DNA from: a virus
Virus record (IMG/VR): IMGVR_UViG_3300045988_000909
Location: 1-6,085 of that record
Strand: one strand, 5' to 3'
DNA: 6,085 nt
Both the position numbers and the translations under genes were made by a program. Positions 1-6,085 of the stretch are shown here, piece after piece (position 1 is the stretch's first letter; the number at the start of each line of letters is the position of its first letter). The notes under the pieces are model-generated. The model did not search any database. It saw nothing but the letters and a program-made list of their open reading frames with translations, and was not told the DNA's origin.

Positions 1-55
1 CCATATACTTGTTCAAGATAGCTTGAGAATCAGACTGTAAATAAACCTGGGTCGT
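1..55. repeat. Terminal direct repeat, copy 1 (circular-genome assembly overlap)
   Basis: Bases 1..55 (ccatatacttgttcaagatagcttgagaatcagactgtaaataaacctgggtcgt) match 6031..6085 exactly by direct comparison. An open reading frame runs through the junction without interruption. Confidence 0.95.
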
Positions 56-673
56 TTGAGCGGCAGAGAGCCTACCAGCGGTAACAGCATTCTCCAATTG
101 TTGACGTTCCATAGATTGGTCTAATTCAGCAGAAATACGACCTGTTTGCTTATTCCAATAACCAGATTCACCAATACCTATTTGTTTGTAGTTCGTATCG
201 CCTTTCATCTTCTCAACCATATATGGCGTCATAACATTAATCTGGTTAGATTCAGAAATAAGCTTTTTAGCTTGAGCGAATGAAGTCAAAGCAGTATCCA
301 CACTTGAAAAATCAGGATGATAAGCCTGATACGGAATAGGATTAGCAGCAGAAGCCTGAGCACCAGAAGGTGAAGAACCAGAACCAGCACCTGTTTGGGC
401 GGCAGAGCCGGACAAGAACGGATTCAAACCACGAGAAATCATAGCTTCAGGGGAATTATATTCTCGCGATTCATCAACCATCTTCTCTTGCCAATCACGT
501 TGCTTCTGAGCTTCCAACATATTAAACTTATTGGTAGTCTGGGTATTACGGAAATTAGCACGATTAGCACTAGACTGTTGCAACGTACCAAAAATACCAC
601 TAATAGCGGCACCAAGGAAATGATGTTCATTTCTAGGAGAGAGTATGCTCTCTCCAATCTCTAGATACCTCAT
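1..673 (-). CDS. VP2: Minor capsid / DNA pilot protein (VP2-like), N-terminal part of a gene that wraps around the circular genome
   Basis: Hand translation of the minus strand from ATG at 671..673 gives MRYLEIGESILSPRNEHHFLGAAISGIFGTLQQSSANRANF...DESREYNSPEAMISRGLNPFLSGSAAQTGAGSGSSPSGAQ... with no stop down to base 1. An in-frame stop lies two codons upstream at 680..682. The frame joins the 5582..6046 ORF exactly through the 55-nt overlap. Total length is 1122 nt, or 373 aa. The Gly/Ala-rich N-terminus and the (E)YNSP....GLNP block resemble gokushovirus/alpavirus VP2 as I recall it. This ORF is missing from the supplied track because it runs off the window edge. Confidence 0.8.
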   Translation of the reverse strand, partial: MRYLEIGESILSPRNEHHFLGAAISGIFGTLQQSSANRANFRNTQTTNKFNMLEAQKQRDWQEKMVDESREYNSPEAMISRGLNPFLSGSAAQTGAGSGSSPSGAQASAANPIPYQAYHPDFSSVDTALTSFAQAKKLISESNQINVMTPYMVEKMKGDTNYKQIGIGESGYWNKQTGRISAELDQSMERQQLENAVTAGRLSAAQTTQVYLQSDSQAILNKYM

Positions 674-1116
674 TGTGCACTAGCGGCAGGGGCGGAAACC
701 TCTGGGGCGGGCGCTGCCTGTTCCTCTGCCAGCATAGCCTGAGCGTATGCGGTTAATTCAGACTTTTCTTGAGCCAATTGTTCCAACACAGCCTGACGTT
801 CAGACATGGTTTGACAATGACGAGAAATAACACAGTTGAATCGCTCTTCATCCGTCATGTTATCCATAGGAGTAGACGGAGTAGGATACATCTGAGCTAA
901 AATATTATTTACATTCATATCGCCAAGAAGACGACGATATTTTTCCTGATTCAAAAGGATTTGGGTCATATCACATTGAATCAAATCTCCATCAGGAGAT
1001 TCATCATACATGACCGAATCGTAAACAGAAGACTGATAACACGGGTTGCCTTCTACCAATTCAGGGACGTATGAATCTTTCTCAAAATTCTCATTTTTAT
1101 AAGCAAAACTTCTCAT
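670..1116 (-). CDS. Hypothetical acidic protein, 148 aa; possible internal scaffolding protein (VP3-like) by size, position and composition
   Basis: The ORF is open from 1203. I chose ATG at 1114..1116 (MRSFAYKNENFEKD...) as the first start that does not overlap VP1, whose stop is at 1127..1129. Alternative in-frame ATGs are at 1203, 1185, 1167 and 1143. The protein is Asp/Glu-rich, with a predicted helical C-terminal half (SERQAVLEQLAQEKSELTAYAQAMLAEEQ) and an Ala/Pro-rich tail. Stop TGA at 670..672 overlaps the VP2 ATG (ATGA). The functional call is positional inference only. Confidence 0.55.
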   Translation of the reverse strand: MRSFAYKNENFEKDSYVPELVEGNPCYQSSVYDSVMYDESPDGDLIQCDMTQILLNQEKYRRLLGDMNVNNILAQMYPTPSTPMDNMTDEERFNCVISRHCQTMSERQAVLEQLAQEKSELTAYAQAMLAEEQAAPAPEVSAPAASAQ

Positions 1117-1126
1117 AACAAGCAAA

Positions 1127-2872
1127 TTAATAAGGTAAACCATTTCTATCCAAATTCTGCACAGCATAAACTTTGAAGTTAACATTACACAATAATTGGT
1201 CATAAGCCACAGAACACTTAGAGCCAGAAACTTGAGGTTCGAAAATAGAGTTCAATTGTTGAGGGCGAACCTTCATAGACCGATAAGACCAACTACCAGA
1301 AGATGTAAGAACAGACCATCCATCAATAGGAGAAACCCAAGATTGGTAAGCAAGACCAGAACGGAATGCAGCATGGACAGTGTCAACGTTAGATTTCCAT
1401 TGCCAGTAGCGAAGATTATATCCAAGAGAACCAGAAACAAGACGAGACGGGTTGTTGTGAAGATTCAAAGCAGGAACAGCTTGCATACCTAATTGATCGA
1501 ATGCAGGTTGAGGGAAATCAGTAATAGAGGTAACAGTCAACTGAGGACTCTGGCCAGTCAAATTCCAATCGACCAAAGGTACAGCATGATATACGCACAT
1601 AATAACCTGATGCTCGGCGCCACAATCATAAGTCAACGCATGGCCGGAAGCAGAACCTACGCCTTTACCAGCGATGACAGCTTGAGAACCATCAGCGTCC
1701 AAATTGGTATTCAAGACTTCATTAATATTGATTACATTAGACCAACCTCCAATATAATGAGCATGATTGCCCATGTATTCAGGGGCATTAACACCGAACT
1801 GAGCACGCATCTGGTCTGAATAATCCTTGCTTGCGAATTGAACTATCTCTTTCCAGCGCTGTAAATATTCCGTTGCTCGGATTGAAAGAGCGGAAAGGTC
1901 AGAATTAAGACGAACTGTCAATGCATTGGAAGTAGAAGGATTAGCAGCATTGGTTACAACGGAGGTTCCAGAAGCAGGGTTAATCAAATAAGATGAAGAA
2001 CCCGAAGAACCAGAAGGGGTATTGGTTACAATTCGAGAAGGCGAAAGAGAGGGTTGGTAAGAAGAAGGTAAAACAGCTACGTCACCGTACTGGCTACGCG
2101 GCAAAATACCCATAAAATAGTCTTTCGGATAGTTTGCATACCGAAGCTGGATCATTTCAGGGGAAAGATTTAATTGAGATTTTCCATCCCAATAATCAAC
2201 ATTGTAAGAATAAGACAGGTGTTTCTCCCATTGAGAGTCAGAGAAGAAGTCATAATAAATCTTCTGATAAGCCAACAGCGGAAGAATGTTTACAGTCTGG
2301 CTAACACTGTAAACCAAAGGGTTAGAAGCATCGGTAACAGAACTTAGACCTAAATAAGCTTGGGTAATAGCGGCCTTAGCGGTATTTGAGGGGGCAAGGA
2401 AAGAACCATATCCAAGCATATCCAATATCTTAGAAGCGCCATAGACGTATGGTAAACCAACGTCATCAAGGACGTCATTGCCATTAACCGTTTGAAGACT
2501 TAGAGACAACAAACTCAACGTGGTATTCGGCACGGAAGTTAACCTCTCAGTATTAGCAGTATTGCTAGCGGCAGACGTTATATAATCCGTCATTTGGGTA
2601 AATGCCTGCGGAAGAGCACGAGAAATCAAGCGTAGCGGCACAGCGTAGAAATCATAGTACTCTTTAATGCGAGTGTATGCAGCCGTGTTAACAGGAACAG
2701 TACGGGTAAACCAGTCGGAAGAAATACGATATTTGTTATTAGGAATAGCAATTTGCCAATAACAAGGAAGAATTTCTCCAACTTTTGCCGTAAATAATTT
2801 TTTACTAGACAAATCAAAAGAAGAGCGATGTACAGCAATTTTCGCTCGATCTAGTGGATTAAAATCACTCAT
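1127..2872 (-). CDS. VP1: Major capsid protein (Microviridae VP1 / phiX174 F family), 581 aa
   Basis: This is the largest ORF in the window. The N-terminal block HRSSFDLSSKKLFTAKVGEILP...RTVPVNTAAYTRIKEYYDFYAVPLRLI matches the conserved jelly-roll N-terminus of microvirus major capsid proteins (recalled HRS.FDLS...FT.K.G.L.P...VNTAA.TR..EYYDF..VP.RL pattern of Alpavirinae-like VP1). ATG is at 2870..2872 and TAA at 1127..1129. Confidence 0.93.
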   Translation of the reverse strand: MSDFNPLDRAKIAVHRSSFDLSSKKLFTAKVGEILPCYWQIAIPNNKYRISSDWFTRTVPVNTAAYTRIKEYYDFYAVPLRLISRALPQAFTQMTDYITSAASNTANTERLTSVPNTTLSLLSLSLQTVNGNDVLDDVGLPYVYGASKILDMLGYGSFLAPSNTAKAAITQAYLGLSSVTDASNPLVYSVSQTVNILPLLAYQKIYYDFFSDSQWEKHLSYSYNVDYWDGKSQLNLSPEMIQLRYANYPKDYFMGILPRSQYGDVAVLPSSYQPSLSPSRIVTNTPSGSSGSSSYLINPASGTSVVTNAANPSTSNALTVRLNSDLSALSIRATEYLQRWKEIVQFASKDYSDQMRAQFGVNAPEYMGNHAHYIGGWSNVININEVLNTNLDADGSQAVIAGKGVGSASGHALTYDCGAEHQVIMCVYHAVPLVDWNLTGQSPQLTVTSITDFPQPAFDQLGMQAVPALNLHNNPSRLVSGSLGYNLRYWQWKSNVDTVHAAFRSGLAYQSWVSPIDGWSVLTSSGSWSYRSMKVRPQQLNSIFEPQVSGSKCSVAYDQLLCNVNFKVYAVQNLDRNGLPY

Positions 2873-2888
2873 AATTAATTAATTCAAA

Positions 2889-4571
2889 TTAGACCATACG
2901 GTTAAATATATTATTAGCGTCATTCAATTTCTTATGCTTAATCATATTACGACAGAATGTTGCACTACGGATCCTGAGTTGGTCAAGAAGTTGAAACGTT
3001 TCACTCGAAGAGGACGAGATGGAATCGATTTCAGCACCGCTCTGCGGTAAGACGAACATACTATCCGATATATCGGGGAATTGGGCTCGGACCATATACG
3101 AATCTCGTAAATTTTGATAGTCTTTCTTCTTTTCATACTCTAGTCCAGTTTTGATGATAAATATAATACGACTGGCATAAGAGTCAAGATTACCACCGAT
3201 GGAAGGCAAATGCCAATTTCTGAGGAATTTACTGACATAAAGGAAAAGCCGATATAATTTATTAACATAAGATTCAGTATCGAAGTCAACAGAACTGAAA
3301 CAGCACCTAGTAGAACACCTAGAAGCATGTAAAATAATTTCATCTTCATTTGTTAAATCGTTATTGGTTAACATAAGGTACTTATAATAAGCACGAACAA
3401 TAGAAAGAATAGAATCGGAATCATAAGCTACGATACCGAATCTTGCAATTCTTTTTGGCGCGTCTGCAACAGCTCGAATAATTCTAGCAATCGCAGTAGC
3501 ATCGTCATAGCGAGCACTTGAGAATCGGGGGAGTAAGGTACGGATATACGACATGGGAGGAGTTGATTTAACACTAATCCCGTTGAAGTTATAGATTCGT
3601 CCATTAATGACAGAATCGATTTTTTGCTCAATCGCGTGATAGACGTCTTCACCTTCTTCAAAAACCTCGCCTTTTTCAAAAAATCCAAGAGATGCTCTTT
3701 GGCGGGGTCTAAACGCGCGGCATGATCTATATAATAGGGGAGCAGAGCTAAGGCTGTTAACGTAACTCGCAACGTACGATGAAGCTCCACCGCGGGCAAT
3801 CTGGAAATCTGAACGACCGAGTTTCCAACTCTTATCATGACACTGTCGTAATACTTCTGAGACTTCTTTCGAGTTCGTGAATAATAAGATATGGTAATGC
3901 GGGCGGAAATGGACTGGTCCATATTCACCCACAGCGTAGAAATGTAGCGTTTCATAAGAACCTAAAACTTGAGATAAATGTTTACGTAATCGTTTGATAT
4001 AGTTCTGAACATCAACATAATTTAAGAAGGGTATAAGGTTATTAATACCGTATTTTTCAGCAACGGGATATACCGAATTGTCGACGGCCTGCGTTTTACG
4101 GATAAAACTACGAATAGCATCCATACTAAGAAACCAATTGTCCTTAACAGGAACATATTCCTTGATTCCACGGTCAAACGGCACCGTGCCTTGAACCTGC
4201 GTGAAGAATATATGACGCAATAGGGAAGAATCCTCAGGTTGATACTCAGAAACAGGGATATAAGAGTGGCGTTCATACCCAAATACTTTATCTCCTGAAA
4301 TGCTTAAAGTGTCTTCATATTCACTATGCAGAACCTCGCAATTCATCAAAGGAACATGCTCATTATCATAAGTAAGCGTTACAAAATAAGAGTACTTGAA
4401 AGCACTTCCTGCGGTCCTCACGCGCATAGACGCTTTTTTAGCACGCTTATGAATACAGTAATCACATTGACCACAATCTACAGCAATACGATGGCCTGTG
4501 TAACGGTTAGTTATATAAGAACGATTCTGACAATGGTCAACAGCCTTAAGCAAATCAGGAGAATATTTCAT
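2889..4571 (-). CDS. VP4: Rolling-circle replication initiator (HUH endonuclease; Microviridae VP4 / phiX174 gpA family), 560 aa
   Basis: All three superfamily-I RCR motifs are present in order. Motif 1 is FVTLTY (4368..4385). Motif 2 is the HUH element HYHILLF (H-Y-H at 3891..3899, checked against the nucleotides). Motif 3 is YVASYVNS, with two catalytic-type Tyr at 3774..3776 and 3762..3764; the phiX174 gpA di-tyrosine motif is YVAKYVNK as I recall it. An N-terminal Cys/His cluster (DHC...H...CGQCDYCIH) is also present. ATG is at 4569..4571 and TAA at 2889..2891. Confidence 0.93.
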   Translation of the reverse strand: MKYSPDLLKAVDHCQNRSYITNRYTGHRIAVDCGQCDYCIHKRAKKASMRVRTAGSAFKYSYFVTLTYDNEHVPLMNCEVLHSEYEDTLSISGDKVFGYERHSYIPVSEYQPEDSSLLRHIFFTQVQGTVPFDRGIKEYVPVKDNWFLSMDAIRSFIRKTQAVDNSVYPVAEKYGINNLIPFLNYVDVQNYIKRLRKHLSQVLGSYETLHFYAVGEYGPVHFRPHYHILLFTNSKEVSEVLRQCHDKSWKLGRSDFQIARGGASSYVASYVNSLSSAPLLYRSCRAFRPRQRASLGFFEKGEVFEEGEDVYHAIEQKIDSVINGRIYNFNGISVKSTPPMSYIRTLLPRFSSARYDDATAIARIIRAVADAPKRIARFGIVAYDSDSILSIVRAYYKYLMLTNNDLTNEDEIILHASRCSTRCCFSSVDFDTESYVNKLYRLFLYVSKFLRNWHLPSIGGNLDSYASRIIFIIKTGLEYEKKKDYQNLRDSYMVRAQFPDISDSMFVLPQSGAEIDSISSSSSETFQLLDQLRIRSATFCRNMIKHKKLNDANNIFNRMV

Positions 4572-4573
4572 AA

Positions 4574-4882
4574 TTATTTTCGTTTATCAATCACCTGGCG
4601 ACGATCGCGCGGGCCAAATGAAATATGAATAAATGTAGGATATAATATCAATTGATCAAACACATGAGTACTTTCCGAATAATTATGGATATGATTGAGC
4701 AACCGATTATAAGTAGTAGAACCATACGGTTTAATATCAATAGCTTCTCCAACCAAATGTTGAGAATTAGGGACACCACCAGCAGCTTTATTTTCAGTAA
4801 TAGAACGTTTAGCGCTTGTCACCGAAAAATGCAGGTTAAAACACAATAAATGTTCAAGGAAATTCATAAGGGTAGTATTCAT
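4574..4882 (-). CDS. Small zinc metallopeptidase of the M15 (VanY / M15_3-like, LAS fold) family; candidate peptidoglycan hydrolase (endolysin-like), 102 aa
   Basis: The sequence VTSAKRSITENKAAGGVPNSQHLVGEAIDI...FIHISF carries the M15 signature SxHxxGxAxD (H42 at 4757..4759, D49 at 4736..4738). A distal His (H86 at 4625..4627) completes an H-x6-D...H zinc triad. The upstream R-x4-N element is typical of M15_3 enzymes. ATG at 4880..4882 overlaps the upstream stop (ATGA). TAA at 4574..4576 lies 2 nt before the VP4 ATG. Confidence 0.75.
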   Translation of the reverse strand: MNTTLMNFLEHLLCFNLHFSVTSAKRSITENKAAGGVPNSQHLVGEAIDIKPYGSTTYNRLLNHIHNYSESTHVFDQLILYPTFIHISFGPRDRRQVIDKRK

Positions 4883-4962
4883 AATCCAATAGCGTTAAGA
4901 ATATAACCTAAGGCGGCAGACACAGCACCAATTACAATTTTCCAAATATTGTTACTTTTCAT
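4879..4962 (-). CDS. Tiny single-pass membrane peptide, 27 aa (MKSNNIWKIVIGAVSAALGYILNAIGL); possible holin-like partner of the peptidase
   Basis: ATG is at 4960..4962. Stop TGA at 4879..4881 overlaps the peptidase ATG at 4880..4882 (ATGA). A short charged N-terminus is followed by about 20 hydrophobic residues. The same frame is open back to ATG 5065..5067, giving a 62-aa two-hydrophobic-segment version (MVLEIILSEFLRWVLLLLWIQLKKK...). That longer version would overlap the 85-aa ORF by 116 nt. The true start is unresolved. Confidence 0.4.
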   Translation of the reverse strand: MKSNNIWKIVIGAVSAALGYILNAIGL

Positions 4963-5209
4963 CGGATTGAGTTTTAAGTTCAACAAAATTATCTTCTTCT
5001 TTAATTGAATCCACAATAACAATAAGACCCATCGGAGAAACTCGCTCAGAATAATTTCCAAGACCATCTAAAGAATTGACAATATAAGGCGGCATAACAT
5101 CACGACCAGTTTGTTTTTCTTTAAGAGAAATAATAAATTTCAACATAATTACAAAGTTTAAAATGTTAATGAATAATGAGTTAGATTCTACAGGGGCAAA
5201 GGAAAGCAT
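4952..5209 (-). CDS. Hypothetical protein, 85 aa, with N-terminal hydrophobic (membrane-anchor-like) segment
   Basis: This is the first ORF downstream of the only large intergenic region. ATG at 5207..5209 is preceded on the coding strand by an A-rich tract (ttattcaaaaaaaATG). The segment NSLFINILNFVIMLKFIISL is hydrophobic and is followed by a mixed-composition 50-aa tail. An alternative internal ATG at 5144..5146 would give 64 aa. I recognise no family. Confidence 0.5.
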   Translation of the reverse strand: MLSFAPVESNSLFINILNFVIMLKFIISLKEKQTGRDVMPPYIVNSLDGLGNYSERVSPMGLIVIVDSIKEEDNFVELKTQSDEK

Positions 5210-5294
5210 TTTTTTTGAATAAACAAAATATTTCAGAGTTTTTTTTGTTCTACGGTTAGAGTGTGAGTTGTGCGTTTATAGACAAGAGGGATCG

Positions 5295-5317
5295 AATTTG
5301 AGATGATAACTCAAATT
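5295..5317. other. Perfect 8-bp inverted repeat / hairpin (aatttgag-atgataa-ctcaaatt)
   Basis: 5295..5302 is the exact reverse complement of 5310..5317, with a 7-nt loop. A further G:T pair is possible at 5294/5318. Confidence 0.7.
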
Positions 5318-5369
5318 TCCTTCGGACACAACTAGGGGCTTCGCTTGAATAACATAGGGGTATAGGCAC

Positions 5370-5391
5370 GGCAAGTCAAGTCTGTCTTGCC
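5370..5391. other. Hairpin ggcaag-(10 nt)-cttgcc, optionally extended by outer pairing gcacg (5366..5370) / cgtgc (5404..5408)
   Basis: 5370..5375 is the exact reverse complement of 5386..5391. The outer 5-bp complement was seen by eye. Confidence 0.55.
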
Positions 5392-5408
5392 TTTGCGCAC
5401 CGACGTGC

Positions 5409-5432
5409 TAAAATACCGGAGCGGAACGCTCC
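5409..5432 (-). terminator. Candidate intrinsic terminator downstream of VP2 (weak)
   Basis: The minus strand reads GGAGCG-TTC-CGCTCC (5432..5418), a 6-bp GC-rich stem with a 3-nt loop, followed by GGTATTTTAG (5417..5408). The U-tract is short (4 U), so this is tentative. Confidence 0.3.
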
Positions 5433-5498
5433 TCTAAAGAAGTCGCTCCGCTCCATTTTATATCAGGCCCTACGCGGGCGGCGGGTGTATATCGCTCC
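5418..5498. repeat. Cluster of CGCTCC hexamers (4 direct copies, 1 inverted)
   Basis: CGCTCC occurs at 5427..5432, 5444..5449, 5449..5454 (overlapping by one base) and 5493..5498. The inverted copy GGAGCG is at 5418..5423. A manual scan of all 'cgct' occurrences elsewhere in the window found no other CGCTCC. Confidence 0.7.
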
Positions 5499-5516
5499 AG
5501 AGCCGCGATGGGCTCT
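5499..5516. other. Hairpin agagcc-gcgatg-ggctct
   Basis: 5499..5504 is the exact reverse complement of 5511..5516. A competing pairing is atcgc (5491..5495) with gcgat (5505..5509). Confidence 0.55.
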
Positions 5517-5581
5517 TAGTCCTGAAGTATAGAACGTAGAATGTAGACATATTCTTCTATCACAGGGGAAAGGAGAATAGA

Positions 5582-6085
5582 TTAGTAGCCAATACCATTG
5601 GCTGAAGATGGATTGCCACGAGAACTAAACTTAAGCTTAGGCATGTTCTGGAAAATCTTAGTACCATAATCCACAGCATTACGAAGACCATAGGAATCAA
5701 AGTCTTTCTTAGCGTTTCCGGCAGACCACTTGTAATAATCACGGAGAGCTTTGTCCTTAGAATACTGCATATTCTTGCGATTATTCACATTTTTGTAATC
5801 CCATAGAGAATCATAATACTGCGTATAGTAAGCCATATTCGTAGCAGACATCAGAGCATCAGCAGTACCAGAAGCTATCTTGTTAGAAATCTTCTGGCCT
5901 TGTGTCTGAGCAGACATCTGAATAGCGCGCTGAAGTTCAGTTTGAACCTGTTTCTCAGTTAAAGCACCTTGCTGCACAAGATTATATAGATACTGAGATT
6001 TTATAAACAAATCTGCTTGTTGTTGAGTATCCATATACTTGTTCAAGATAGCTTGAGAATCAGACTGTAAATAAACCTGGGTCGT
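5582..6085 (-). CDS. VP2: Minor capsid / DNA pilot protein (VP2-like), C-terminal part (6031..6085 duplicates 1..55)
   Basis: The track ORF 5582..6046 starts with an 'M' that is really an internal TTG (Leu) codon at 6044..6046. The frame stays open upstream to the window end (..TTQVYLQSDSQAILNKYMDTQQQ..). Stop TAA is at 5582..5584. The sequence is Gln/Tyr/Lys-rich, typical of pilot proteins. Confidence 0.8.
   Translation of the reverse strand, partial: TTQVYLQSDSQAILNKYMDTQQQADLFIKSQYLYNLVQQGALTEKQVQTELQRAIQMSAQTQGQKISNKIASGTADALMSATNMAYYTQYYDSLWDYKNVNNRKNMQYSKDKALRDYYKWSAGNAKKDFDSYGLRNAVDYGTKIFQNMPKLKFSSRGNPSSANGIGY
6031..6085. repeat. Terminal direct repeat, copy 2 (circular-genome assembly overlap)
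   Basis: Identical to 1..55. This implies a 6030-nt circular unit. Confidence 0.95.

Follow-up and report, generated by a model that had tools for sequence, protein, structure and literature searches.

A conserved 27-codon gene beside an M15 peptidase gene in a microvirus: a candidate minimal membrane lysis peptide

Protein E of phiX174 blocks MraY and LysM blocks MurJ; we know of no settled account of how microviruses other than phiX174 lyse their hosts, nor of a route by which their M15 peptidases would cross the inner membrane. Here, the IMG/VR virus record IMGVR_UViG_3300045988_000909 was analysed from position 1 to 6,085 (hereafter the window, 6,085 nt), in which an open reading frame (ORF) of 27 codons lies directly upstream of, and overlaps, the gene of an M15 peptidase. 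In a sequence-only reading of the window, the two had been proposed to form a miniature holin-endolysin pair.

M15 peptidases have been described in microviruses since 2012 (Roux et al. 2012, PMC3394797), with further accounts by Kirchberger et al. 2022 (PMC9239249) and in PMC9865509, and any claim that a muralytic enzyme is unusual in a microvirus is dated. Among microviral lysins, activity is shown only for Ebor Gp7, which is unrelated to the enzyme of the window (PMC11980548). The peptidase of the window belongs to the horizontally acquired, lysis-associated accessory set described in these sources (PMC3394797, PMC9239249 and PMC11980548), and the 700-nt recombinant peptidase region of Kirchberger et al. 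is the block examined here. The passages searched in these sources name no membrane partner, and none is described in the other papers found. Compared with that work, the block is here seen to extend into a small ORF with a predicted transmembrane helix, and in the lineage of the window the peptide gene outlasts the peptidase. The candidate function is that of a minimal membrane lysis peptide in single-stranded DNA (ssDNA) phages which would be paired with, but not bound to, an endolysin.

The 27-codon gene and its relatives

The ORF opens with an ATG at 4960-4962 on the minus strand, is translated as MKSNNIWKIVIGAVSAALGYILNAIGL and ends with a TGA at 4879-4881. Re-reading of the ORFs placed it, together with its ATGA overlap with the peptidase gene, exactly where the sequence-only reading had put them; a second overlap, of the first 11 nt of the ORF with the end of an upstream ORF of 64 amino acids (aa), was absent from that reading. 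Relatives were gathered by whole-genome megablast, by locus searches based on the peptidase and on the replication initiator (Rep), and with a degenerate DNA pattern for the peptide. The selection test was based on loci ascertained through Rep, the pattern search itself forcing codons 6-21 to appear conserved. Ratios of non-synonymous to synonymous divergence (pN/pS) are pooled pairwise values that ignore phylogeny, with a large contrast between frames.

The ORF was present in all 74 evaluable loci ascertained via Rep alone, where 72 distinct nucleotide versions collapsed into 35 distinct peptides. Over codons 5-25, which overlap no other gene, pS was 0.416 and pN 0.040, giving a pN/pS of 0.097, whereas the other two frames over the same codons gave 1.59 and 6.5. 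The small ORF was also the most constrained of the four neighbouring genes when these were compared in the 59 loci with all four present (pN/pS 0.12), followed by the first 150 codons of Rep (0.18), the peptidase (0.30) and the upstream ORF (0.44). In the subfamily of the window (subfamily 1), all 117 distinct ORF sequences followed by a peptidase kept the 4-nt overlap, as ATGA in 115 and GTGA in 2. At the other end of the gene, the C-terminal residues of the upstream protein vary (SDEK, NNEK, QDGN, DNGK, VSHE) and the start codon in the peptide frame is always kept, as ATG throughout except for GTG in two loci (L186 and L219). The peptide is likewise retained, with its core IGAVSAALGY unchanged, in the distant genomes mar56 and Dulem viruses 226, 238, 241 and 243, the peptidases of which are 46-62% identical to that of the window. 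As judged from these comparisons, the 27-aa ORF is shown to be a genuine gene under purifying selection; a chance ORF is ruled out by the conservation and the frame-specific selection. The persistence of the ORF and its overlap and the confinement of selection to this one frame, on which the sequence-only reading had made its proposal depend, were thereby borne out.

None of the GenBank relatives examined annotates the small ORF, and an empty 69-nt gap stands in its place. Metagenome gene callers, on the other hand, often predict a 73-aa version in the peptide frame. The suspicion that the gene had escaped annotation was supported: in gene calling, it is either passed over or merged into a spurious 73-aa frame. 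The peptide matched no family above threshold in Pfam, PHROG or NCBIfam, a DNA-pattern search of bacterial genomes gave no match, and a regular-expression search of integrated capsid relatives (25-37% identity, with 64% over the best segment at one locus) found no member of the peptide family.

The peptide consists of a short basic N-terminus (K2, K8; net charge +2), a tryptophan at position 7 and a predicted helix of 19-22 residues that runs up to the C-terminus. The Kyte-Doolittle mean over residues 9-27 is 2.0 (range 1.8-2.2) and the hydrophobic moment is low (0.20). This hydropathy fits a single transmembrane helix, as the sequence-only reading had suggested when it noted a polar N-terminus and one hydrophobic segment of helix length in the 27-aa form. 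By the positive-inside rule, the N-terminus would be expected to stay cytoplasmic, and the far end of the helix to lie at the periplasmic face. The helix is marginally hydrophobic and rich in Gly, Ala and Ser, and on a helical wheel K8, G12, S15, A16, G19, N23 and G26 fall within 180-280 degrees, giving one small/polar face.

Two related subfamilies were found. Subfamily 2 (MKSETKSKIWSAIIAAAVSLLTSIAQIFS, 29 aa) comprised 49 IMG/VR loci and Dulem virus 257, with a close variant in mar62. In each of these, the peptide gene closely precedes that of the peptidase, the commonest spacing being a 3-nt gap (TAAGTCATG in 30 of the 49), unlike in mar62, which keeps an ATGA overlap. As an independent lineage, subfamily 2 gave a pN/pS of 0.066, an estimate limited to the codons outside the search pattern. 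In subfamily 3 (for example MADDSKKTKLWSAIISAIVAALTSLASALF), from which three genomes were sampled, the peptide gene lies between a small upstream ORF and Rep, and no M15 motif was found anywhere in the three genomes. When the peptides were aligned manually from the conserved tryptophan, the small/polar stripe recurred in subfamilies 2 and 3 at positions +5, +9, +12, +16 and +19; the polar residue at helix position +16 (N/Q versus S) correlated inconsistently with the presence of the peptidase. Towards the outgroups, the peptide is 64-74% identical and the upstream ORF 32-58%. By these comparisons, the peptide is a fixed gene of the lineage, held in a constant slot between the small upstream ORF and Rep.

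A more remote candidate was found in a porcine group of 13 GenBank microviruses, which carry a peptide of 29-30 aa such as MTKEQLNKISNALCALISAVCAALSYFFS; in the seven examined, it directly follows the peptidase and stands just before Rep. Its core, I-S-A-V-C-A-A-L-S-Y, resembles IGAVSAALGY, and when 802 six-frame ORFs were ranked with a profile of subfamilies 1-3, porcine peptides took the first four places. The porcine-type peptides may be either distant homologues or convergent analogues. A search of IMG/VR with the porcine-type pattern returned a single, unrelated match. In size, the peptide is also similar to two families of approximately 30 aa without a known function, Pfam DUF6486 and the NCBIfam 'smalltalk protein'. 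Smalltalk genes often stand next to genes of N-acetylmuramoyl-L-alanine amidases; should this hold, and should the peptide be related to these families, a role in lysis would be strongly favoured. The subfamily-3 peptides gave sub-threshold scores against both (11.4-18.6 bits against a cutoff of 22.7 for DUF6486, and 13.6 against 24.7 for smalltalk), while the peptide of the window and those of subfamily 2 matched neither. A smalltalk protein is annotated in Bacteroides thetaiotaomicron (PMC10434189).

Linkage of the peptide gene with the M15 peptidase

The protein encoded directly downstream of the peptide matched Pfam PF08291 with 38.3 bits (cutoff 23.2, E 1.6e-9) and PHROG 894, 'endolysin', with an E-value of 2.8e-14. 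It contains the zinc ligands of the family (H-x6-D and a distal H) and the substrate arginine of the S-x-x-R motif; R26, H42, D49 and H86 are invariant in 59 relatives and align with the corresponding residues of Dulem 257, mar56, phiHBP1 and MG945328. The sequence-only reading had described the peptidase as lacking a signal sequence, and this was supported by the profile alignment, in which residue 14 aligns to profile position 38 of 108 and no N-terminal extension is left, as well as by the close homologues of Dulem 257 and mar62, the maximum 17-residue Kyte-Doolittle means of which are 0.62 and 0.95, respectively. With neither a signal peptide nor a signal-anchor, the enzyme would depend on a membrane lesion, and it is a credible, if putative, cytoplasmic endolysin. 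Its homologues with 41-47% identity carry an endolysin annotation in Stenotrophomonas phage Siara, in the cassette of which the endolysin is followed by two holin/antiholin genes and then by the i- and o-spanin, and in Burkholderia phage KS9, which has the order holin, endolysin and Rz/Rz1. A likely unannotated lysis cassette was also seen in the B. fragilis siphophages BF10P2 and BF698P1 (L337 814-2357 and L338 833-2361), in which an M15 peptidase of 132-135 aa stands between a multi-helix membrane protein of 163/164 aa and an N-terminally anchored protein of 201 aa, all three being 'hypothetical' in GenBank.

Peptide and peptidase genes were found next to each other in three arrangements: overlapping in subfamily 1, mostly separated by 3 nt in subfamily 2, and in the order peptidase-then-peptide in the porcine group. 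In addition, MG945328 and MG945336 share a block of 735 nt with 76% nucleotide identity. It covers the peptidase, for which aa identity is 74%, and reaches over the start of the peptide ORF, for which aa identity is 69% and synonymous differences are numerous, while elsewhere the two genomes are deeply diverged (VP1 27.5% and Rep 33% identical). The pair is given as an example of inter-family recombination by Kirchberger et al. (PMC9239249). Peptide and peptidase thus appear to have travelled as a pair among microviruses that are otherwise deeply divergent. Overall, the peptide family occurs in every sampled member of the three related subfamilies, beside the endolysin whenever one is present there.

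Unrelated small, very hydrophobic ORFs were also observed near the peptidase in other M15 microviruses (bajarodmic virus 66, L231 17-139; L232 501-563; L233 462-533), one example being an annotated 40-aa protein (MVYILVLVLVVIKLIIILCFRKKK...) encoded approximately 400 nt upstream of the peptidase. Those of bajarodmic viruses 66 and 679 and of D_HF5_96 may be analogous partners or the product of chance in AT-rich DNA, and they were not counted as evidence.

Possible roles of the peptide

We tentatively favour the reading that the peptide is a minimal holin-like lysis peptide which also works without the peptidase, while giving it somewhat less than an even chance. Its membrane insertion, topology, oligomerisation, translational coupling and any role in lysis are inferred. 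The peptides would accumulate in the inner membrane with the N-terminus in the cytoplasm, self-associate via the small/polar stripe on one helix face (K8-G12-S15/A16-G19-N23-G26) and so permeabilise or depolarise the membrane. The lesion would let the adjacent signal-less M15 endolysin reach the peptidoglycan, and the stop/start overlap would tie peptide and peptidase to one translation stream; in genomes without the peptidase, the peptide would suffice, presumably by provoking autolysis of the host. A role in lysis would best account for the attraction between the two genes, the need of the endolysin for a lesion, the lack of another lysis candidate and the precedent that small phages offer for tiny lysis proteins of the membrane. 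From the Alpavirinae, no E-like gene for lysis is known (PMC3091885), and for the membrane-acting component of lysis in microviruses of Bacteroidales, no better candidate than the peptide has yet emerged.

The likeness to holins from phages with double-stranded DNA (dsDNA), in particular those of the pinholin type such as S21 68, lies in a small peptide, predicted to reside in the inner membrane, the gene of which has a stop/start overlap with that of a putative cytoplasmic endolysin, and in a single helix face of Gly/Ala/Ser type, as expected for helix-helix packing. Moreover, in phages of Bacteroides, Burkholderia and Stenotrophomonas, homologous M15 endolysins adjoin holin-like membrane proteins. 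By its predicted single transmembrane helix, the peptide agrees with the usual description of a holin as a small phage protein with at least one such helix, and its gene adjoins that of the endolysin in the window, in all 117 peptidase-followed sequences of subfamily 1, in the 49 subfamily-2 loci and in the porcine group. It differs from the holins in its length of 27 aa, its single helix, its 6-kb ssDNA genome and its retention in relatives without an endolysin, and comparison with Pfam, PHROG and NCBIfam showed no resemblance of its sequence to a family of holins. If the peptide is a holin, it would set a lower size limit for holin function and extend the two-component lysis cassette to ssDNA phages.

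Several observations weigh against this interpretation. The summed Hessa free energy of the helix is +1.6 kcal/mol (range +0.5 to +2.5), which means that insertion would be only marginally favoured. The charged hydrophilic C-terminal tail of holins is absent, as the peptide ends within the helix (...LNAIGL-stop) and carries charges only at K2 and K8, and there is no conserved dual start, in-frame starts further upstream showing no conservation. The near-invariance of the helix core IGAVSAALGY exceeds what a generic hole-former needs and would suit a specific binding partner. Window-type and porcine-type peptides are only weakly homologous, with E-values of 0.01-0.5 among the 802 ORFs. In a Gram-negative host, a pure holin kills the cell but does not release particles of 25-30 nm. 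Furthermore, the two genes are not strictly tied to each other. Nine distinct subfamily-1 genomes lack the M15 gene and have the peptide gene, an AT-rich spacer of approximately 50 nt and then Rep; in these, selection on the peptide is not relaxed (pN/pS 0.107). The three sampled genomes of subfamily 3, all without M15, keep the peptide in the same slot. Conversely, phiHBP1 encodes a 134-aa M15 homologue and no member of the peptide family, yet forms plaques. With no charged tail, no conserved dual start and an endolysin that is not always present, the peptide falls outside the canonical holins.

The proposal of a holin-endolysin pair was thus sustained in part: the recurring adjacency, the conserved overlap and the endolysin-family neighbour support it, whereas the peptide is kept without the peptidase and phiHBP1 has a peptidase without the peptide. 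The stricter versions are not supported: the nine subfamily-1 and three subfamily-3 genomes speak against a peptide that exists to serve the peptidase, and phiHBP1 against a strict dependence of the peptidase on the peptide. The peptidase-less genomes are scattered on a neighbour-joining tree of Rep, each with peptidase-bearing nearest neighbours at an aa distance of 6-14%. A single loss of the peptidase is ruled out, as the genomes lacking it are not monophyletic on this tree. Since they are scattered among the bearers, the peptidase represents a presence/absence polymorphism against a fixed peptide and, as read from these genomes, is a mobile, optional accessory that has repeatedly landed beside the peptide gene. 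One subfamily-3 genome without the peptidase had no recognisable muralytic domain in any ORF and no other recognisable lysis candidate.

The genomes observed without the peptidase (L159, L197, L198, L200, L206 and L210; also L056, L067, L074, L077, L088, L094, L102, L131, L216 and L218) share a similar AT-rich spacer, and most have a peptide that ends in AIGV. The common ending and spacer suggest either one deletion allele spread by recombination or repeated loss. In phiHBP1 (L234 / L228, PV598014), the gene order is Rep, a 54-aa ORF resembling the upstream ORF of mar62, the 134-aa M15 peptidase and VP1; all coding sequences of the record save that of the capsid protein VP1 are 'hypothetical', and the paper describing the phage does not discuss lysis (PMC13064476). 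As the first cultured microvirus that infects Bacteroides, it nevertheless offers a platform on which the question of lysis is directly testable.

A serious alternative, if an unlikely one, is that the peptide has a membrane role outside lysis, for instance as a modulator resembling K of phiX174, as an anchor or regulator of Rep and replication, in superinfection exclusion, or as an accessory in entry or assembly. The adjacency of the peptidase would then reflect no more than the tolerance of a compact genome for insertions. Outside subfamilies 1 and 2, the peptide gene is indeed always found directly upstream of Rep, separated from it by 10-50 nt in the genomes of subfamily 3 and in those that lack the peptidase, and by 6-22 nt in the porcine group, and the occurrence of peptide without peptidase, as well as of peptidase without peptide, is readily accommodated. 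Insertion tolerance is, however, a poor account of a peptidase that sits on either side of the peptide gene and nowhere else, of a recombinant block shared between families, and of a 4-nt overlap kept in 117 of 117 sequences; in addition, no other lysis candidate was recognisable in the peptidase-less genome searched.

It is somewhat less probable that the peptide acts by single-gene lysis as a 'protein antibiotic'. It would then bind and block one specific inner-membrane enzyme with which the host builds its envelope, as E does with MraY and LysM with MurJ, and lyse growing cells alone, with the M15 peptidase as a facultative booster. Proteins of this kind typically inhibit a step in the supply of lipid II (MurA, MraY, MurJ). 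The constraint on the peptide is unchanged in genomes without a muralytic enzyme, the presence of the peptidase varies among genomes that differ by only 6-14% in Rep, and the helix is almost invariant while its neighbours diverge, as the outgroup comparison given above illustrates. Small single-stranded phages are, in addition, the known home of such proteins (PMC7693330, PMC12506998). The peptide is like E of phiX174, LysM of levivirus M (37 aa) and L of MS2 in being a very small protein with a predicted single helix from a minimal single-stranded phage; it is the sole lysis candidate in peptidase-less relatives, and its conserved helix fits binding to a specific partner. Unlike these proteins, it has its own slot rather than an embedded gene, with overlaps of just 11 and 4 nt, it mostly coexists in tight linkage with a muralytic enzyme, and it shares no sequence similarity with them and has no known target. 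Genomes that rely on single-gene lysis are by definition without a muralytic enzyme, which in this case applies only to the peptidase-less relatives, as the window carries the M15 peptidase. Besides, no target can be named, and the peptidase has come to lie beside the peptide in at least three separate ways, with the two apparently moving together. A blocker of wall synthesis makes no early lesion in the membrane and would be of no help to a cytoplasmic endolysin, especially in slow-growing gut anaerobes; since it would give the endolysin no early access, yet the genes are repeatedly placed together, this mode of action was rated below the holin-like one.

In its fullest form, in which the peptide would be an autonomous 27-aa 'protein antibiotic' of Alpavirinae-type microviruses with a helix that binds an inner-membrane protein of envelope biogenesis in Bacteroidales, and the M15 peptidase a mobile accessory that docks repeatedly, the proposal must be regarded as doubtful. 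If the peptide does act alone, it would rank with the smallest known lysis proteins and could serve to probe an envelope target in Bacteroidales, and a 'protein antibiotic' of this kind would point to a new antibacterial target in a dominant gut phylum.

Longer reading frames and genome context

The sequence-only reading had also pointed to a 62-aa form of the peptide with two hydrophobic segments, reminiscent of class II holins. The real product would in that case have two helices and a greater length (62 aa in the window, 73 aa in many relatives) and would be overprinted on the gene upstream, as E is on D in phiX174. The 62-aa form does exist as an ORF from the ATG at 5065-5067, and 105 of its 189 nt fall within the upstream gene, in the +1 frame. 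Of 127 distinct relatives, 125 have this frame open and 92 an in-frame ATG 46 codons upstream, metagenome gene callers predict the 73-aa version, and midway along the upstream ORF pS dips to 0.20. None of these arguments withstood the controls. Third codon positions are 44-57% T, which makes stops rare in the +1 frame (0.03-0.05 per codon genome-wide), and four control +1 stretches of 65-177 codons in Rep are open in 69-70 of 70 relatives. The dip in pS corresponds to approximately the 5th percentile of ordinary 32-codon windows of Rep (0.135-0.55) and fades before the junction with the short ORF. Hydrophobic 'proteins' are a routine yield of the +1 frame in genes with T-rich third positions.

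Direct evidence also contradicts the long form. In the window, a stop directly before the ATG at 5065 removes the first 11 codons of the 73-aa version; stops occur inside the extension in L017 and L129, the start methionine is kept in only 46 of 73 relatives, a stop precedes the peptide ATG by 1-3 codons in subfamily 3, and an upstream ATG is missing from 14 of 49 subfamily-2 genomes. Towards the outgroups, the identity of the extension is 24-44%, less than that of the short peptide and of the true upstream frame, for which the values were given above, and the upstream ATG itself arises incidentally from a conserved Asp-Val (GAT GTT) that the real frame encodes. Two conserved helices from a conserved start, as in class II holins, were thus not found, and a protein-database search with the 62-aa query returned matches from the same lineage only. 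We consider the long form very improbable and conclude from the comparison of frames that only the form of approximately 27 aa is a conserved product.

Least credible of all, and next to impossible in our estimate, is that the region forms the N-terminus of the peptidase and serves as its signal-anchor, through a frameshift or as an N-extended 124-aa coding sequence such as those placed over the region in GenBank PP511858, PP511489 and PP511332, since the reading in the peptidase frame is rich in Cys, Trp and Arg and non-hydrophobic (MEDYHWSCFRCSRLRL...), no slippery sequence was seen in the last five codons, and both versions are ruled out by two stops in the peptidase frame of the window together with the selection on the peptide frame. 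In the records concerned, the 124-aa coding sequence is named 'peptidase' in Dulem 226 (L213, PP511489) and 238 (L214, PP511332) and 'hypothetical protein' in Dulem 243 (L005, PP511858); its first approximately 22 codons are an out-of-frame reading of the peptide gene, and its start is probably miscalled. Short internal duplications in or just after the start of the peptidase break the frame in four IMG/VR loci (L027, L069, L117 and L128) and are probably assembly artefacts or defective variants.

The upstream 64-aa ORF is the real coding frame beneath the proposed extension, and it matched no family in Pfam, PHROG or NCBIfam. Its codons 16-48 (approximately 5002-5098, minus strand) have a pS of 0.20-0.22, compared to 0.39-0.41 at both ends of the gene; the dip is not exceptional and could mark an element at the nucleotide level. 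Within Rep, stops in the +1 frame cluster between the four open stretches, one example of which is a 175-aa ORF at 3428-3955 (minus strand), and local dips in pS to 0.13-0.23 occur at codons ~224-260 and 328-350. Both features may reflect codon bias only, with overprinted genes in Rep as a possible alternative.

The features of the locus are collected in Table 1. The genome is circular with a length of approximately 6040 nt, as bases 1-45 recur at 6041-6085 of the window. All genes are carried by the minus strand and also include a scaffold-like ORF and a pilot protein; the upstream ORF, peptide, peptidase and Rep form a single, tightly packed run of four genes.

Table 1. Coordinates of features at and around the peptide gene in the window
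Feature	Position	Strand	Basis or remark
Major capsid protein	1127-2872	-	
Rep (replication initiator, Rep/VP4)	2889..4571	-	Pfam PF23343; starts 2 nt after the peptidase stop
Peptidase_M15_3, 102 aa (LAS-type zinc peptidase), putative endolysin	4574..4882	-	PF08291, PHROG 894
27-aa peptide gene, predicted membrane peptide (MKSNNIWKIVIGAVSAALGYILNAIGL)	4879..4962	-	ORF reading, conservation, selection, hydropathy
ATGA stop/start overlap (peptide TGA 4879-4881 / peptidase ATG 4880-4882)	4879..4882	-	
11-nt overlap (ATGAAAAGTAA) of the peptide start codon with the last codons and stop of the upstream ORF	4952..4962	-	
Upstream 64-aa ORF (MLKFIISLKEKQTGRDV...SDEK), TAA 4952-4954	4952..5146	-	Conserved in relatives
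35-codon N-terminal extension giving the 62-aa form, judged no conserved coding feature	4963..5067	-	

The closest GenBank relatives, found by megablast, are microviruses from lemur, dog and human samples with 73-89% nucleotide identity. Identity between the capsid proteins of the window and of phiHBP1, the first microvirus isolate that infects Bacteroides, with B. fragilis as host, is 39% (PMC13064476). Capsid relatives were found on genome contigs of Prevotella, Paraprevotella, Xylanibacter and other Bacteroidales, with best-segment identities of 25-40% and of 64% at one locus; a few non-Bacteroidota assemblies likewise had them on short contigs. Given these relatives in Bacteroidales and the likeness to phiHBP1, the host is very probably a Gram-negative member of Bacteroidales, and the lineage of the window is one of Alpavirinae-like microviruses, probably with such hosts.

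An Rfam search of the window gave no match. Within its largest non-coding stretch (approximately 5210-5580), a strong GC-rich hairpin (GGAGCGGAGCGACTTCTTTAGAGGAGCGTTCCGCTCC) was observed at 5409-5460 on the minus strand, and the region 5380-5500 folds with -24.8 kcal/mol (z -3.07 compared to shuffled sequences). The records of relatives carry differing 'hypothetical proteins' in this region, and the hairpin may represent an origin, a terminator or a packaging element.

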